Positions 2,055 to 31,414 of a stretch of 39,417 nt of DNA are shown here, one piece after another; positions within the stretch are counted from its first letter, which is position 1, and each line of letters opens with the position of its first letter. Below the pieces are notes generated by a model. The model was not told the origin of the DNA. It ran no database searches and saw only the letters and a list, made by a program, of their open reading frames with translations. The DNA lies in the IMG/VR virus record IMGVR_UViG_2671181055_000004; one strand, written 5' to 3'. This DNA is from a virus (Duplodnaviria; Heunggongvirae; Uroviricota; Caudoviricetes). A program made the translations under genes and the position numbers.

Positions 2055-4109
2055 ATGTCAGACTCCAAGTGGAAAATGCTCTCCGCCATGCCCGGAGAGT
2101 TTTCAGTCAAGGTTGCCGGTGGCACGGTGGCATTTATTGAAAGCCCTTTCCGCCCTTCGGGTAATAAAGGGGGGATCACCTTCGCAGACTGCGTGATCCG
2201 CTTCAGCACGAAAGAGCCATTATGGGTAATGCCGGTATCCGGTAATCCCAGTGCAGAAATCACCAGTTCAGGCGTGACTGGCATCATTCCAATCACATCT
2301 GACGTGGCCGGAACGCTCACGCCCTCCGACTGGAATGCACCGGATAACGCCGGGCCTTCCGGTAGCACGAATGGCAGCAGTTCAGAGCCGGAATATTACT
2401 TTGTTGTCATTCTCGCGGGTCAGTCAAATGGCATGGCCTACGGCGAGGGGCTGCCGTTACCGGATTCGTTTGACCGCCCGGACCCACGCATTAAGCAACT
2501 GGCACGCCGCAGTACGGTAACGCCCAACGGTACGTCGTGTACATACAACGACATCATTCCGGCAGACCACTGCCTGCATGATGTTCAGGATATGAGCGGG
2601 ATAAACCACCCGAAAGCTGATCTGGCAAAAGGCCAGTACGGGACTGTCGGTCAGGGGTTGCATATTGCCAAAAAACTGCTTCCCTATATCCCACAGAATG
2701 CCGGGATACTTCTGGTGCCCTGTTGTCGTGGCGGGTCAGCATTCACCACTGGAGCCGACGGCTCATTCAGTGAGGCCAGCGGTGCTTCCGCTGATTCTTC
2801 ACGCTGGGGGGCCGGTAAACCTCTGTATCAGGACCTGGTAAGCCGCACCAAAGTCGCGCTGGCGAAAAACCCGAAAAACAAACTTCTGGCTGTGGTCTGG
2901 ATGCAGGGAGAGGCAGACCTTGCCTCAGGAAGCCAGCAGCATAATAGTTTATTCACGGCCATGGTTCAGCAGTTCAGAACTGACCTGGCTCCGCTTGCTG
3001 CGCAGTGCGTGAGTGGAAATGCCACCACGGTGCCGTGGATTTGCGGTGATACCACGTATTACTGGAAAAACGCTGGCACCGATAAATATGAGGCAGTATA
3101 CGGTGGCTACAAAGGCAAGGAAGCACAGAAAATTTTCTTTGTACCGTTCCTGACGGATGAGAATGGACAGAGCACGCCAACGAATGCTCCGGCGGAAGAC
3201 CCGGATATTGTGGCTGTCGGGTATTACGGTGCAGCATCCCGAACCCAGGGCAGTTTTGTTTCGACACAGCGTGACAGCCATTTCAGCTCATGGGCACGCA
3301 GGGGCGTCATTTCAGACCGTCTGGCCTCAGCTATTATGCTCCATGCAGGGCGCACGGCTGAACTGATGCGTGGGCAGACCGTGACACCACCGGATGAGAA
3401 GCCGTCACCTGATACACCATCAAAACCGTCCACGCCACCCGCAGACACCACGACGATGAGTACGCTATTTGCTTACCGGGCATCTGAGTCTGAAGGACGG
3501 TTGACACCACAGGGTTGGGCTGCCGGAGGTGGCAAGGCTCAAATCGTGGATGATGCCGGAGCCAGCGGGGGTAAGGCAATGAAACTGACCAAGGAAACAG
3601 GAAGAGCCCCCTGGTACCTTGAGCATGATGCTGGTAATGGTGCGGACCTGCTGGGTAAAGGTGGTCTTGTCAGTTGTCGTTTTAAACTCGATGGCGCGCT
3701 TACGGCTAATCAGTACGCACTGGCGCTGTACTGGCCGGTTTCTGCCCTGCCGCAAGGGGTTACTCTGGAAGGAAATGCCGGTCATAACCTGCTGGCATCG
3801 TTCTACGTACAGAGCGATGCCACAGACCTTAACGTGATGTATCACAAAGGAAACACGGCGCAGAACACGAAGCTGGGGTCATTCGGCGCATTTAATAACG
3901 AATGGCATACGCTGGGCTTCCGTTTTGCCGGTAACAACAGTATTGAGGTGACGCCGGTCATTGATGGTAAGGACGGGACACCATTCATGCTGTCGCAGTC
4001 TCCGGTCGGCACGTTTACGGCAGACAAGTTGCGCGTGACCGATATCACTAAAAATGCGACTTACCCGGTACTGATTGACAGTATCGTGGTGGAAGTGAAT
4101 AACGCGTAA
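2055..4109 (+). CDS. SGNH/SASA-type carbohydrate O-acetylesterase with Pro/Thr-rich linker and C-terminal beta-sandwich-like domain (NanS-p-like sialate O-acetylesterase candidate)
   Basis: 684-aa ORF with RBS-like AGGCAGAAAAGACG before the ATG; motifs FVVILAGQSNGMAYGEG and VVWMQGEADLASG resemble sialate O-acetylesterase/DUF303 blocks; linker PPDEKPSPDTPSKPSTPPADTTT. Confidence 0.55.
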   Translation: MSDSKWKMLSAMPGEFSVKVAGGTVAFIESPFRPSGNKGGITFADCVIRFSTKEPLWVMPVSGNPSAEITSSGVTGIIPITSDVAGTLTPSDWNAPDNAGPSGSTNGSSSEPEYYFVVILAGQSNGMAYGEGLPLPDSFDRPDPRIKQLARRSTVTPNGTSCTYNDIIPADHCLHDVQDMSGINHPKADLAKGQYGTVGQGLHIAKKLLPYIPQNAGILLVPCCRGGSAFTTGADGSFSEASGASADSSRWGAGKPLYQDLVSRTKVALAKNPKNKLLAVVWMQGEADLASGSQQHNSLFTAMVQQFRTDLAPLAAQCVSGNATTVPWICGDTTYYWKNAGTDKYEAVYGGYKGKEAQKIFFVPFLTDENGQSTPTNAPAEDPDIVAVGYYGAASRTQGSFVSTQRDSHFSSWARRGVISDRLASAIMLHAGRTAELMRGQTVTPPDEKPSPDTPSKPSTPPADTTTMSTLFAYRASESEGRLTPQGWAAGGGKAQIVDDAGASGGKAMKLTKETGRAPWYLEHDAGNGADLLGKGGLVSCRFKLDGALTANQYALALYWPVSALPQGVTLEGNAGHNLLASFYVQSDATDLNVMYHKGNTAQNTKLGSFGAFNNEWHTLGFRFAGNNSIEVTPVIDGKDGTPFMLSQSPVGTFTADKLRVTDITKNATYPVLIDSIVVEVNNA

Positions 4110-29277: not shown

Positions 29278-29301
29278 AAATCCCGCGCTGTGGCGGGATT
29301 T
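29278..29301 (-). terminator. Rho-independent terminator on the minus strand between the GemA-like gene and the activator gene
   Basis: 9-bp stem AAATCCCGC/GCGGGATTT with a 6-nt loop, followed on the minus strand by TTTTATTTTAAA. Confidence 0.55.
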
Positions 29302-29305
29302 GGGG

Positions 29306-29818
29306 TTAACGGGGGAATGATTTTTCATACAGCCTGCAAACACGCTCATAACTCATCACTGCACGTTCCGACATATCCAGGGCTGCCAGCATTTTGCGGC
29401 GGTGCCAGCGTTTGAGACGCTCCAGCACATCAGAGGCCAGCGCGGGTTGTTGCTCCAGCCACTGCCAGTTAGCCACACCTTCGCCGTCGTTCTGCGCGGC
29501 CGTCTGCGATTTCACCCAGCGGTTAAGGGCCGTTTCCCCGCCATCAGAGATAAATCCCTGCCGGTGCATCACTTTCCAGATGGCGCGAATTTTGGCGGTC
29601 ACCGTACCCGGTTTTAAGGCCCGGTTAACCGGCTTCTGACGCACTTTAAAACCGCGTTTTTTGAAAACATCCAGCACGCGGGATAACTCACCGGGTGACA
29701 TATCACGGCAACTGGATTTGCCGGTGGCTGCCAGCAGCGCGGATGTATAGGTATCATGGTCAAGCTGTAGATCGCGTTTTGCGACATGTATTAAGGTAAT
29801 CAGGGAAGCGCGATTCAT
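29306..29818 (-). CDS. GemA-like regulatory protein (Mu gp16 family)
   Basis: 170 aa, MNRASLITLIHVAKRDLQLDHDTYTSALLAATGKSSCRDMSPGELSRVLDVFKKRGF... matches my recall of the GemA/gp16 N-terminal pattern. Confidence 0.6.
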   Translation of the reverse strand: MNRASLITLIHVAKRDLQLDHDTYTSALLAATGKSSCRDMSPGELSRVLDVFKKRGFKVRQKPVNRALKPGTVTAKIRAIWKVMHRQGFISDGGETALNRWVKSQTAAQNDGEGVANWQWLEQQPALASDVLERLKRWHRRKMLAALDMSERAVMSYERVCRLYEKSFPR

Positions 29819-29888
29819 TATCGTGGCTCCATAAAAAATGGGCGGTGTTACCGCACCGCCATGTCAATTAACATAAAAGGAAAAATCT

Positions 29889-30128
29889 ATGTCAGATATA
29901 AAAAATGCACTTGATGTTGCCGCATTCACAATGGCTGGAAATCTTATGGTAACCCTGTTCGATAAGGGGCTGATTTCCCGTGAGGAGGCAATACATATTA
30001 TCAATCTCGCTCAAAAAAACTCTACCCCGGAAAATGCAGAAGATATCCAGGATGGCTCATATATTAATACCGACTGGCATTTCGACAATCTCCGGGCCTG
30101 TATGGGGATTACCGCTGAAAAAGATTAA
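29889..30128 (+). CDS. Hypothetical 79-aa protein, low GC, opposite strand to the early operon
   Basis: ATG 29889 with AAGGA 8 nt upstream; 3' end overlaps the convergent gene by 20 nt. Confidence 0.5.
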   Translation: MSDIKNALDVAAFTMAGNLMVTLFDKGLISREEAIHIINLAQKNSTPENAEDIQDGSYINTDWHFDNLRACMGITAEKD

Positions 30129-30396
30129 AAATTTTTGCATAATGTTCAGATGTAAGAATTGCTGAACCATCAACACCGAGCCTACGGCGAACGTATTCCT
30201 CGCGGGCTATTTTATTATCCAGAGATACAGCATCCTTAATCAGGTTAATCTCCCGCTCCATTATCAAAAGGGCTTCTCTGGCTGCAAGATTTTCTTTTAT
30301 CGCATATTCGATAATGTCCCGCATACGTTCAAGCATGCCGATTTTAGCCAGTTCTTCGTCGATAGATTTAGGCGCAAATTTGATTTCTTTTTCCAT
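30109..30396 (-). CDS. Hypothetical 95-aa protein (predicted helical), low GC
   Basis: ATG 30396 preceded by GAGGATGAATAAT; translationally coupled to the upstream zinc-ribbon ORF (TAATATGG). Confidence 0.5.
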   Translation of the reverse strand: MEKEIKFAPKSIDEELAKIGMLERMRDIIEYAIKENLAAREALLIMEREINLIKDAVSLDNKIAREEYVRRRLGVDGSAILTSEHYAKIFNLFQR

Positions 30397-30397
30397 A

Positions 30398-30541
30398 TTA
30401 TTCATCCTCACAATTTATACATGCAGTGTCGTCGCCCATATCGCAGTGGTTACATTTTATCTCACCACAATGTGGGCACTCTTTCAGATACTCCGGGTCC
30501 TCATTTCCACAGGTGGGACATTCAACAATTTGCTCATCCAT
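30398..30541 (-). CDS. 47-aa zinc-ribbon protein with four CxxC pairs (below the ORF-track size cutoff)
   Basis: MDEQIVECPTCGNEDPEYLKECPHCGEIKCNHCDMGDDTACINCEDE; ATG 30541 overlaps the stop of the upstream gene (ATGGATGA). Confidence 0.45.
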   Translation of the reverse strand: MDEQIVECPTCGNEDPEYLKECPHCGEIKCNHCDMGDDTACINCEDE

Positions 30542-30866
30542 TATGTATCCCCTGTAATTCCGGCAAGGCCGAAAGATGGCACCAGTGCGTCACCTGTCCG
30601 TCCTCATCTTCAAGGCAGGCTCCGGTTTCTTCATCAATAAAAAAGCCTTCATACCCCATATGGCCGATGCGCAGTTCCTGTTGGTCACCATACTGAACAA
30701 TCAGCACGACAGCCTCCATATCAGGCGGAAATGCGTCATCCAGTGAATGCCAGGGATAACCGCGCAAATCCCCGAAATAAACGCCGGTCAGCGTTCCGCC
30801 ACAGAGCGGCATTCCGGCGGCACACACAAGAGGTTCATCTGATTCAACAAATAAGGTCGTTATCAT
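30534..30866 (-). CDS. Hypothetical acidic 110-aa protein
   Basis: ATG 30866 overlaps the upstream stop (ATGA); Asp/Glu-rich (e.g. IDEETGACLEDEDGQ). Confidence 0.5.
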   Translation of the reverse strand: MITTLFVESDEPLVCAAGMPLCGGTLTGVYFGDLRGYPWHSLDDAFPPDMEAVVLIVQYGDQQELRIGHMGYEGFFIDEETGACLEDEDGQVTHWCHLSALPELQGIHNG

Positions 30867-31414
30867 GGCGTTAACTCCCGTAATACAGCGTCCTCGGCAG
30901 TCCGGCGACGGTAATAAACTGCGTGAGCAGAATGTTCAGATATTCCAAACTTTTCGCCAATTTCCCGGAATGACAGACGGCGTGGGTAATCGGAATCACG
31001 CAGCTCACGTATAAGACGTACATCATCATCAGATATGCGCGTGCCGGGGCGTAACTCTCCGCACTTTGTTAATCCAGCACCAATCATTCCTGCCCGACAT
31101 CTGACAGAATCTTTATTACGTCCGAGATATTCTCCCATTTGCTGGCAGGTCATTGTTCTGGCATTTTTTCGAATAAACTTATCTTCATCAGGTGTAAATC
31201 TTGGGTGTTTATATTTCAGTAACTCCGGGTATGAACTGCGCAATACACCAGTCCGGTTATATACAGCCCAGACAGTTCTTTTTATTCTGGCAGCAATATC
31301 CTTAACCGGGGTGGATGAATAAAGCGCAATCAGCAGCGCATCTTCTTCAGGTGTCCACGGACGGACATGAGCGGGGGCGCGACCTTTTAGTCCCATGGGT
31401 TGTAATTTCATCAT
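30863..31414 (-). CDS. Hypothetical DNA-binding protein with three helix-turn-helix-like repeats
   Basis: 183 aa; repeats WTPEEDALLIALY..., FTPDEDKFIRKNA..., ISDDDVRLIRELR... each followed by a basic helix. Confidence 0.45.
   Translation of the reverse strand: MMKLQPMGLKGRAPAHVRPWTPEEDALLIALYSSTPVKDIAARIKRTVWAVYNRTGVLRSSYPELLKYKHPRFTPDEDKFIRKNARTMTCQQMGEYLGRNKDSVRCRAGMIGAGLTKCGELRPGTRISDDDVRLIRELRDSDYPRRLSFREIGEKFGISEHSAHAVYYRRRTAEDAVLRELTP

Follow-up and report, generated by a model that had tools for sequence, protein, structure and literature searches.

The small-gene block ahead of gemA in an Escherichia coli Mu-like prophage corresponds to the gp13-gp14-gp15 end of the phage Mu early region, with one additional acidic gene

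Introduction

The semi-essential early (SEE) region comprises poorly conserved small genes whose function is uncharacterised (PMC8705779). In phage Mu, the order of genes at this end is gp12, gp13, gp14, the reverse-oriented gp15 and gemA. The relevant products are gp13 (Mup13, NP_050617; phrog_5584), gp14 (Mup14, NP_050618; phrog_6075) and gp15 (Mup15, NP_050619; ‘F-134’ of M64097), and a search of the literature yielded no functional study of any of the three. In the GenBank record of Mu, a ‘semi-early promoter’ is marked over the interval equivalent to the one considered here, and a passage of PMC3820752 cites constitutive expression of the gem operon in the prophage. A comparable arrangement is described in the Pseudomonas transposable phage Fc02, in which olg1/olg2 and gene 10 overlap on opposite strands of the early/regulatory region, with one read in the lysogenic state, the other in the lytic (PMC9936078).

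The DNA analysed here (hereafter, the window) is the 39,417-nucleotide IMG/VR record IMGVR_UViG_2671181055_000004, a tailed-phage genome matched at 100% by E. coli HH35, where the annotated names include Mor, gp16 (GemA), Gam and Mu transposase. An initial annotation, made from the letters alone, had flagged positions 29,889 to 30,866 as a low-GC island of small genes belonging to no recognisable family. By homology and gene order, the flagged block is the E. coli Mu-like prophage’s version of the small early genes gp13, gp14 and backward-facing gp15 of phage Mu, plus an extra acidic gene. The block is thus real and already known from Mu, with function not assigned by homology for any of the four genes.

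Gene order and comparative scope

The four open reading frames, their couplings and the convergent overlap proposed in the initial annotation are all present (Table 1). Mu has homologues of the zinc-ribbon, helical and opposite-strand genes, namely gp13, gp14 and gp15, in the same order and orientation, and all four proteins match PHROG families, contrary to the view that no family could be recognised. Homology, gene order and orientation therefore agree with Mu. On the early strand, the 110-aa, gp13-like and gp14-like genes show the close junctions of translational coupling: the 110-aa gene overlaps the 47-aa gene by 8 nt (ATGGATGA), and the TAA of the latter is followed, after 1 nt, by the ATG of the 95-aa gene. 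The best explanation overall is probably that the block forms the distal end of the SEE region, with orthologues of Mu gp13, gp14 and gp15 standing behind a lineage-specific 110-aa protein and with accessory roles for the products. The initial annotation rightly anticipated that the genes are real, small and non-structural and that they occupy the variable, distal portion of the early region of a transposable phage.

Table 1. Features of the block and its flanks, in window coordinates
Feature	Position	Strand	Length or basis
GemA (gp16) gene, flank	29306..29818	-	Pfam GemA, E 1.8e-28
GC-rich hairpin GGCGGTG-CGGTAA-CACCGCC, then CATTTTTTAT	29831..29860	-	terminator scan and RNA fold
AT-rich swap cassette (gp13-like, gp14-like and gp15-like genes plus hairpin)	29838..30550		713 bp; blastn against sister prophage L002
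79-aa protein, diverged Mu gp15 (Mup15) family member	29889..30128	+	HMM, position, phrog_32893 (E 1e-45)
A7 homopolymer run inside the 79-aa gene	30013..30019	+	database variants frameshift at or near the run
Convergent 3'-end overlap of gp14-like and gp15-like genes	30109..30128	both	20 nt
95-aa helical protein, Mu gp14/E15 homologue	30396..30109	-	tblastn; phrog_6075, E 5e-44
47-aa double zinc ribbon, Mu gp13/E14 homologue	30541..30398	-	BLASTP; phrog_5584, E 3e-26
110-aa acidic protein	30866..30534	-	ORF list; phrog_6925, E 2e-51
183-aa SANT/Myb-like HTH protein, flank	30863..31414	-	phrog_323, E 5e-53; PGAP name

The GemA gene served as the anchor of the comparative survey, with which 80 related loci were recovered; the co-occurrence tally spans 84 gemA-anchored loci. 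Scans of a one-genome-per-species contig set, first using GemA and later the gp13 alignment, gave no relevant loci, because this set does not contain the prophage type concerned. Word-indexed searches with the 79-, 110- and 95-aa proteins recovered close enterobacterial relatives only.

The lineage-specific 110-aa protein

Relative to Mu, the window carries an insertion of two genes, those of the SANT/Myb-like and 110-aa proteins (overlapping each other as ATGA), between the gp12-like and gp13-like genes. The 110-aa protein was correctly described as acidic (pI 4.05; 19 D+E against 2 K+R), but the label fits the 47-aa protein equally (pI 4.05). Its relatives fall into 17 close clusters, from E. 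coli or Salmonella only. From these comparisons, the gene is best described as a lineage-specific accessory early gene of a narrow E. coli/Salmonella prophage family, without counterpart in Mu and outside the exchangeable cassette described below.

Residues 39-102 bear a weak likeness to DUF551 proteins (YfdS, Stx-phage Ea22 V2; PMC10834534), which are likewise small prophage early-region proteins. Nevertheless, the score for PF04448 (14.6 bits, E 0.062) is below the gathering cut-off of 22, the fold is not confirmed by the poor AF2 model, and membership was rejected. Weak PHROG matches were also seen to phrog_7704 (E 0.0014) and phrog_924 (E 0.009). The AF2 model is all-beta and of low confidence (pLDDT 57.5), and a fold search with this poor model returned zero matches.

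The gp13-like zinc ribbon

The 47-aa frame was said to hold four CxxC pairs, and these are CPTC, CPHC, CNHC and CINC. In BLASTP the protein is identical to Mu gp13 at 36 of 41 residues (88%, E 2e-27), and all eight cysteines are invariant in the gp13 alignment. Both proteins share the slot between the gp12-like and gp14 genes and a 41-residue core with the four CxxC pairs, whereas Mu gp13 is 60 aa long with a 19-residue N-terminal extension that the window protein does not have. The gene lies upstream of gp14 in the early operon in Mu, in the window and in the surveyed loci, and a gp13-like gene occurs in 49 of 5426 complete E. coli genomes; no CDS is called by PGAP at the 47-aa frame in NZ_CP136993.2. 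Elsewhere, the gp13 domain is found as a C-terminal fusion on a protein of ~190 aa in other prophages (phrog_6418).

Comparison of the core with Mu gave dN 0.067, dS of about 2.1 and omega of about 0.03, with synonymous sites saturated. Such substitution ratios show purifying selection on this short frame and, as set out below, on the 79-aa frame, and the extreme conservation of gp13 points to a conserved target. A Lar-type restriction-alleviation zinc ribbon was considered and rejected as generic CxxC similarity (PF14354, 11.3 bits against a cut-off of 28.6, E 0.43; TIGR03655, 12 bits against 39.6, E 0.2). The best PDB match of the 47-aa protein, the RadA zinc finger (E 0.02), was also counted as generic.

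The gp14-like protein and its convergent partner

With tblastn, the 95-aa protein is 49% identical to Mu gp14 over 94 of 95 residues (E 5e-21), a full-length match, and 47-57% identical to the proteins of Mu, SfMu and D108 (E about 1e-21). An exhaustive profile search of 1.84 billion proteins placed the family in 19 representative clusters, all of about 95-121 aa and none with a domain fusion. Sequence and profile searches of the PDB with gp14 returned coiled-coil noise only. As in Mu, a convergent opposite-strand gene directly follows, the overlap being 62 nt in Mu and 20 nt in the window.

The presence/absence survey advised in the initial annotation was made on the 84 gemA-anchored loci: gp14 and gp15 occur together in 37 and are both absent from 46; a single locus has gp14 only, its gp15 having been deleted, and gp15 alone was found in 0. 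In every lineage examined, the two genes overlap convergently by 20-74 nt. Thus, the two genes form an obligatory pair in inheritance, their 3' ends always overlapping convergently.

This pairing raises the possibility, which we regard as rather unlikely, that gp14 and gp15 form a two-state module, gp14 (with gp13) acting in the lytic state and gp15 in lysogeny, as in the Fc02 olg1/gene 10 arrangement. The two products would then be mutually antagonistic or would perform a single exclusion or anti-defence task in both states; with the same low probability, the module would either protect through exclusion or counter-defence or gate gemA-mor through the adjacent hairpin. The perfect co-occurrence is consistent with such an arrangement, as is retention of the 3' overlap across lineages down to about 25-35% identity, and convergent transcription would render expression of gp14 and gp15 mutually exclusive. 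Furthermore, Fc02 is itself a transposable phage in which overlapping genes of opposite orientation have exclusion activity, and so provides a precedent (PMC9936078). Nevertheless, the proposed expression states are read from gene arrangement, no gp15 promoter was found across lineages, and physical overlap by itself enforces part of the linkage. The Fc02 genes are unrelated in sequence, adjoin the repressor and ner instead of gemA, and overlap extensively instead of at the 3' ends only; their exclusion phenotype is demonstrated, whereas gp14 and gp15 are known here from sequence. Frameshifted copies of gp15 also stand beside intact gp14 with no sign of harm. Neither Pfam nor NCBIfam gave a toxin-antitoxin family match for the pair.

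Identity of the opposite-strand gene

Assignment of the 79-aa protein to the gp15 family is indirect. Pairwise BLASTP with Mu gp15 is not significant; therefore, the homology runs via intermediates, together with position, and concerns only the N-terminal ~45 aa. An HMM built from the opposite-strand frames of other Mu-like phages, with the window type left out, detects the protein at 38 bits (E 7e-8 at Z=1e6). The reciprocal profile gives 27 bits for the L049 type, itself 54% identical to Mu gp15, and 14 bits for Mu gp15, while tblastn identities with two further types (L030 and L042) are 45-53%. The conserved part is an N-terminal two-helix region of about 45 aa, where the window protein and Mu gp15 have the motif DVA(A/G)(F/Y)..A..L...L..K..I..EE in common; their C-terminal halves are unrelated. 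Both phages carry the gene in opposite orientation, with a start some 70 nt ahead of the gemA ATG and a 3' end that overlaps gp14 convergently. The 79-aa gene was described as the sole plus-strand gene in the early operon, and in an identical E. coli genome PGAP indeed calls no other opposite-strand CDS from ner to the late genes. Being homologous to Mu gp15 in Mu’s order and orientation, it is therefore a canonical Mu-like feature and no peculiarity of this prophage. The window type of gp15 (phrog_32893) is nevertheless rare, with 14 occurrences in 5426 complete E. coli genomes.

The current GenBank record of Mu (AF083977) takes another view of this interval, annotating a forward 55-aa frame, ‘Mu_54’, in place of gp15. 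On that view, the 79-aa frame would be an antisense shadow that codes for nothing, and any real gene would be found on the early strand; the Mu_54 antisense frame is open in the L049 type too. We consider this extremely improbable. The window has no early-strand ATG frame of comparable length opposite the 79-aa gene, and the HMM detects conservation at the protein level across lineages. Among the six frames, that of the 79-aa protein has the lowest dN/dS (0.17-0.36), and between Mu and the L049 type the reverse frame gives 0.37-0.40 against about 0.6 for the Mu_54 frame; on these frame-wise ratios, in the window and in the Mu comparison, a spurious antisense frame was rejected. A Shine-Dalgarno sequence precedes the gp15 ATG in every gp15 lineage, and RefSeq, PGAP and the SfMu record each annotate the reverse gene.

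The AF2 model of the protein is of moderate confidence (pLDDT 70.7), with helices at 2-25, 31-45 and 61-71. Searched against BFVD it has no significant match, although Mu ‘F-134’, the longer version of gp15, is among the top TM-scores of 0.63-0.64 (E 3). For the N-terminal domain, Pfam gave the window protein no match to the SHOCT-like motif PF22746. As a separate lead, the L049-type relative scores 17.5 bits (E 0.003) with this family, under its cut-off of 27. Several database copies of the gene (P0005, P0007-P0010) switch to the +1 frame, at three different positions, so the phage may be able to do without the C-terminal half or the entire gene. Upstream of the gp15-like gene, no convincing sigma-70 promoter is consistent across lineages.

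An exchangeable AT-rich cassette

The low-GC character noted for the island holds for positions 29838-30550 (41.8% GC when taken as 29819-30533), but not for the 110-aa gene, which at 51.4% lies outside the AT-rich part. Individually, the gp15-like, gp14-like and gp13-like genes have 42.1%, 39.9% and 43.8% GC, against 50.3% for the early region and 57.1% for the late region. In blastn comparison with the sister prophage L002, the flanks are ~95% identical, this identity ending at 30551 and resuming at 29837, with zero similarity between, which puts the breakpoints at 30551/30550 and 29838/29837. L002 replaces the cassette with unrelated 116-aa and 102-aa genes (x116/x102) and an opposite-strand DUF2513 gene. 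Hence the gp13-gp14-gp15 block and the hairpin are exchanged as one AT-rich cassette among sister prophages.

The DUF2513 genes of sister Mu-like prophages occupy the same slot as gp15, in the same orientation directly upstream of gemA, and converge on the preceding early gene. They were never found paired with gp14, however, and show no detectable homology to gp15; the two families are therefore handled as unrelated, the hhalign probability being 5%.

Such exchange bears on a reading along the lines of the initial annotation, by which this prophage alone would have gained the block by horizontal transfer, as an anti-defence or superinfection-exclusion island not seen before. A low GC content, swapping between prophages otherwise 95% identical, small acidic proteins in the early region near Gam, the moron-like orientation of one gene and the filling of its slot elsewhere by an unrelated DUF2513 gene would all suit that account. 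We nevertheless judge it unlikely. Mu itself has three of the four genes, as the homologues gp13, gp14 and gp15 in the same order, all four proteins belong to existing PHROG families, and PADLOC matches are zero. Synonymous sites of gp13 are saturated relative to Mu, so the content is ancient and vertical, not a recent import.

The hairpin ahead of gemA

Between the gp15-like start and the gemA ribosome-binding site, and directly ahead of the latter, sits a GC-rich hairpin with a 7-bp stem (6 GC) and a 6-nt loop, followed by CATTTTTTAT. On the early-sense strand it looks like an intrinsic terminator, in agreement with the sequence pattern of such terminators on the transcribed strand. The hairpin or dyad is found in 32 of 32 gp15-family loci. 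Across 16 distinct relatives, 100% of the alignment cells in the stem are paired, with compensatory change in two of the seven pairs, and the G.U pairs work on the early-sense strand only. In Mu the following U-tract is weak (CCCTTTCC), so terminator activity may be low or lineage-specific. In early-sense RNA, the hairpin and U-tract would form a leaky terminator, the stem at the 5' end of the gemA-mor (‘gem’) transcript, or both. Nothing relevant came from scans of this stretch for Rfam families and repeats.

The same dyad, GGCGGTG-N6-CACCGCC, could instead be a DNA operator through which the gp15-like protein regulates the divergent gemA-mor operon. A small gene divergent from gemA and only about 70 nt away would be well placed for this, the dyad accompanies gp15-family genes at all 32 loci, and the semi-early promoter of Mu is annotated there. 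We hold this to be very unlikely. The dyad is kept where gp15 is deleted (L072, L076 and L090) and in 8 of 18 DUF2513 loci, while compensatory variation and G.U pairs that fit one strand are a signature of RNA. Moreover, the 79-aa protein is acidic (pI 4.5), has no HTH match and is predicted to form a long helical hairpin.

Possible functions and expression

The profile and structure searches advised for the four proteins supplied PHROG families for all and Mu homology for three, but no functional lead from Pfam, NCBIfam, PADLOC, the PDB or AlphaFold/Foldseek. Pfam, NCBIfam and PADLOC scans that took in the neighbours as well were equally without a lead, and nothing exceeded curated cut-offs for the four. 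Scans of the same Pfam/NCBIfam type with the gp15-family and gp14-family alignments gave noise only, and single-sequence and profile searches of the PDB gave nothing or generic matches only. None of the four proteins has a match in PADLOC-DB at E<=1; PADLOC covers defence and not anti-defence, so this null bears mainly on the exclusion idea. The proposed anti-defence or exclusion module consequently found no positive evidence among PADLOC, Pfam, NCBIfam, PDB or fold matches. An anti-defence function may still apply to the gp13-15 families in general. Membrane proteins were considered and rejected, the maximal KD19 hydrophobicity being 1.27-1.45, with no transmembrane segment.

Under the preferred SEE-region reading, the 110-aa, gp13-like and gp14-like proteins would be made from the Pe early transcript and would be dispensable factors, for host takeover or accessory tasks, that bind proteins of the host or the phage. 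We infer that these small, acidic, non-enzymatic proteins most likely act by protein binding, a role suggested by their size, charge and absent enzyme or DNA-binding signatures. The gp15-like gene would be transcribed on its own, against the early operon; transcription from Pe and of gp15 would interfere mutually, and gp15 would be favoured under Pe repression.

Significance

The main value of this analysis is a correction: what was flagged is the usual end of a Mu early region, with gp13, gp14 and gp15, and no new island. For annotators, the strongly conserved 47-aa gp13 zinc ribbon is absent from PGAP calls in these prophages. Furthermore, of the two annotations of this interval in Mu, the comparative evidence favours the opposite-strand gp15 (RefSeq) and not the forward ‘Mu_54’ that GenBank gives at present. 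To these are added the obligatory convergent overlapping pair of gp14 and gp15, the alternation of the gemA-adjacent slot between gp14/gp15 and unrelated DUF2513 genes, and a covarying hairpin ahead of gemA. The Mu genes concerned have been without an assigned function for decades in a model phage, and there is as yet no pointer to a new kind of system. If true, the two-state module would provide the first function for a block that Mu has carried since its genome sequencing.

Gene layout and genomic context

The window is an E. coli prophage of the transposable, Mu-like kind whose genes run on the minus strand. Several complete E. coli chromosomes, e.g. HH35 (NZ_CP136993.2), match the 1.3 kb around the four small ORFs at 100% identity. 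In HH35 the neighbouring genes carry the PGAP names Mor, gp16 (GemA), Gam, AAA ATPase (B), Mu transposase and HTH (Ner-like) protein; the repressor is encoded on the other strand. All four ORFs placed by the initial annotation coincide exactly with the ORF calls, and the couplings and convergent overlap it described were seen at the positions claimed: an ATGA overlap joins the upstream SANT/Myb gene to the 110-aa gene, 8 nt (ATGGATGA) are shared by the 110-aa and 47-aa genes, 1 nt separates the 47-aa stop from the ATG of the 95-aa gene, and the 79-aa and 95-aa genes converge over 20 nt (30109-30128). PGAP calls the 79-, 95- and 110-aa genes in the identical E. coli genomes and leaves the 47-aa ORF without annotation; in its annotation the 79-aa gene is the sole opposite-strand CDS from ner to the late genes.

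Features of the small-gene region and its flanks
Feature	Coordinates	Strand	Source or detail
SANT/Myb-like HTH protein, 183 aa	30863-31414	-	phrog_323, 'transcriptional regulator, D5-like'
110-aa ORF	30866..30534	-	ORF call
47-aa ORF	30541..30398	-	ORF call; CPTC, CPHC, CNHC, CINC
95-aa ORF	30396..30109	-	ORF call
79-aa ORF	29889..30128	+	ORF call
A7 run inside 79-aa gene	30013-30019	+
GC-rich hairpin	29860..29831	-	terminator scan; GGCGGTG-CGGTAA-CACCGCC then CATTTTTTAT
Second terminator-like hairpin, between gemA and Mor-family gene	29278-29301	-	AAATCCCGC...GCGGGATTT then TTATTTT

Relative to Mu, the SANT/Myb-like and 110-aa genes form an insertion between the gp12-like and gp13-like genes; in sister prophages the SANT/Myb slot holds a version only ~72% identical, or a gene that PGAP names AsnC family protein or DNA-binding protein. 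A single Mor/C-family gene lies directly upstream of the lysozyme gene.

Family membership of the minus-strand proteins

While no recognised family had been assigned at first, all four proteins match PHROG families, each of unknown function (110-aa, phrog_6925; 47-aa, phrog_5584; 95-aa, phrog_6075; 79-aa, phrog_32893), and three are homologues of Mu gp13, gp14 and gp15. The initial annotation was therefore sound as observation (ORFs, couplings, overlap) and holds only in part as interpretation, these being Mu families in their canonical arrangement. The region is the end of a Mu-type early region that carries gp13, gp14 and gp15, preceded by an acidic gene specific to this lineage.

The 47-aa protein is identical to Mu gp13/E14 at 36/41 positions (E 2e-27), and the 41-codon zinc-ribbon core gives dN 0.067, dS ~2.1 and omega ~0.03 against Mu. 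Saturated synonymous sites together with 88% protein identity in this core imply long-term purifying selection rather than recent transfer, and the ORF is a real gene under very strong purifying selection; its protein is much better conserved than its neighbours, whose amino-acid identities to Mu are 49% for gp14 and 42% for GemA. A novel acquired anti-defence island is contradicted by this saturation of dS and by the Mu homology of gp13, gp14 and gp15; the gp13-15 families at large may still act in anti-defence. In some prophages (L054, L057, L058 and similar comparison loci) the whole zinc ribbon is fused in frame as the C-terminus of a ~190-aa early protein (cf. phrog_6418), giving a 252-aa ORF in the gp12 position that ends ~720 nt upstream of gemA; this fusion suggests that gp13 and the ~190-aa protein act together.

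With gp14/E15 of Mu, D108, SfMu and Yersinia Mu-like phages the 95-aa protein shares 47-57% identity; a gp14 profile picked up just 19 representative clusters from 1.84 billion proteins, every one single-domain. Mu lacks a counterpart of the 110-aa protein, whose family is narrow, with members only in E. coli and Salmonella. Its similarity to DUF551 (14.6 bits) falls below the cut-off of 22, and its AlphaFold2 model is poor (pLDDT 57.5), with no match in a fold search.

The opposite-strand gene and its pairing with gp14

Among natural variants of the 79-aa gene, dN/dS is 0.17-0.36, the lowest of the six reading frames, and remains lowest even for a pair at 53% amino-acid identity. In RefSeq Mu (NC_000929), gp15 (Mup15) lies on the opposite strand (7896..8162), starts 71 nt upstream of gemA, and meets gp14 convergently, overlapping its end; the 79-aa gene is arranged likewise. 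Pairwise BLASTP between the 79-aa protein and Mu gp15 was not significant. Opposite-strand ORFs adjoining gemA were therefore taken from 80 GemA-anchored IMG/VR loci, and a profile built from them with the window type left out scored the 79-aa protein at 38 bits (E 7e-8, database size 1e6) over residues 6-46. The reciprocal profile without Mu types gave 27 bits for the L049 type, which is 54% identical to Mu gp15, and 14 bits for Mu gp15 itself; tblastn also gave direct matches of the window type to the L030 and L042 types (45-53% identity). Taken with the shared slot, orientation and overlap, these links make the 79-aa protein a diverged gp15-family member.

The current GenBank Mu record AF083977 (L004) carries a forward 55-aa 'Mu_54' at 3761-3928 (+), where RefSeq has the opposite-strand gp15 (3697-3963 (-) in L004 coordinates). 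The 79-aa ORF could accordingly be regarded as a spurious antisense ORF, a reading argued against by the selection analysis favouring the 79-aa frame, by the conserved Shine-Dalgarno sequence before the opposite-strand gene and by the window having no forward ORF there. In Mu too, dN/dS (0.37-0.40 reverse, ~0.6 forward), cross-lineage protein conservation and the conserved Shine-Dalgarno favour reverse gp15 over Mu_54. The 79-aa ORF is a real gene.

The conserved part of the family is N-terminal (~45 residues, motif DVA(A/G)(F/Y)..(A/G)..L...L..K..I..EE), and members are unrelated in their C-terminal halves. The AlphaFold2 model of the 79-aa protein is moderate (pLDDT 70.7; helices 2-25, 31-45 and 61-71) and has no significant BFVD matches, Mu 'F-134' (the long gp15 form) being among the highest TM-scores (0.63). 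A sub-threshold SHOCT-like match in one gp15 relative is compatible with an oligomerisation hairpin, and is only a lead. Among database variants, P0005 and P0007-P0010 carry frameshifts, at three different positions; P0005, P0008, P0009 and P0010 enter one alternative frame with a common, different C-terminus (...RMAHILIPTGISTISGP...). Decay, sequencing error and slippage are all conceivable causes. Across lineages, no conserved gp15 promoter was identified.

A presence/absence survey, proposed at the outset, found gp14 and gp15 together in 37/84 loci and neither in 46/84; gp15 never occurred alone, and the sole gp14-only locus (L072) has gp15 deleted. The two genes converge with a 20-74 nt overlap in every lineage, even though identity drops to ~30% (gp14) and 20-25% (gp15), and form an obligatory convergent pair. 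A two-state gp14/gp15 module like olg1/gene 10 of Fc02 (PMC9936078), a less likely reading, would fit this co-occurrence and overlap.

Base composition and cassette exchange

The AT-rich block noted initially is borne out for the 79-, 95- and 47-aa genes (42.1%, 39.9% and 43.8% GC; 41.8% over 29819-30533, vs 50.3% in the early and 57.1% in the late region), but not for the 110-aa gene (51.4%). The flanks match the sister prophage JKHS016 (L002) at ~95% identity, with the match running down to window position 30551 and resuming at 29837; the 713-bp block between these breakpoints comprises gp13, gp14, gp15 and the hairpin, and 116-aa, 102-aa and DUF2513 genes stand in its place in L002. This AT-rich block is thus swapped as one unit between sister prophages, and gp13 occurs with either cassette type in the surveyed loci.

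The 102-aa gene preceding DUF2513 (L002 3556-3864 (-)) has ~35% identical homologues between gp13 and gp14 in SfMu-type phages (SfMu, L007 896-1204 (+)), and in other prophages such a gene lies directly upstream of gemA without an opposite-strand gene. It is a small-gene cassette that moves independently.

Where enough sequence upstream was available (78 IMG/VR loci), the slot beside gemA holds a gp15-family gene (32/78), an opposite-strand DUF2513 gene (18/78) or no opposite-strand gene (28/78); hhalign indicated no relationship between the gp15 family and DUF2513 (probability 5%). In one DUF2513 lineage (L043, L048, L054 and similar), only 30 nt separate the start of the opposite-strand gene from the gemA ATG; the GGCGG hairpin is missing there, its place taken by a short AT-rich dyad (TCTCAT..ATGAGA).

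The hairpin before gemA

The stretch from the start of gp15 to the ribosome-binding site of gemA contains a hairpin whose 7-bp stem is paired in every cell across 16 distinct sequences, with compensatory changes at two pairs (U-A to C-G; G-C to U-A) and three G.U cells that pair on the early-sense strand only. It occurs in 32/32 gp15-family loci, 8/18 DUF2513 loci and deletion derivatives without gp15. That gp15 is a regulator and this GC dyad its operator is disfavoured by the RNA-type covariation, the survival of the dyad in loci that lack gp15, and the acidic, non-HTH character of the gp15-like protein. A 'semi-early promoter' is annotated over the equivalent interval in the Mu GenBank record, the Mu U-tract after the hairpin is poor, and PMC3820752 cites constitutive prophage expression of the gem operon. 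With the second terminator-like hairpin, gemA is bracketed by two hairpins in this prophage.

Functional prospects and significance

The semi-essential early (SEE) region is described as a set of small, functionally uncharacterised genes (PMC8705779), and no study of Mu gp13, gp14 or gp15 was found in the searchable literature. The profile and structure searches initially proposed gave the four PHROG matches and, from Pfam, NCBIfam, PADLOC, PDB and fold searches, no functional lead: neither the four proteins nor the gp15 and gp14 family alignments matched Pfam, NCBIfam or PADLOC above cut-off, and PDB sequence searches yielded nothing meaningful, the match of gp13 to the RadA zinc finger (E 0.02) being only the generic resemblance of zinc ribbons.

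All four proteins are predicted to be soluble, and three are distinctly acidic (pI 4.05, 4.05 and 4.49). The three minus-strand genes would be translated by coupling from the transcript of the early promoter Pe, and their products most likely bind host or phage proteins, because they are small, acidic and without an enzyme or DNA-binding signature; the omega of gp13 suggests a conserved partner. The gp15-like gene would have to be transcribed separately, against the early operon, and convergent transcription with the 3' antisense overlap would set expression of gp14 and of gp15 against each other and favour gp15 while Pe is repressed. On the early-sense RNA the hairpin probably works as a leaky terminator, as the 5' stem of the gem transcript, or as both.

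The feature is a further member of the known families Mu gp13, gp14 and gp15 in canonical arrangement. Its added value is comparative: an unannotated yet extremely conserved zinc-ribbon gene, an obligatory gp14/gp15 pair that converges, a swap cassette alternating with DUF2513, and a covarying hairpin ahead of gemA.
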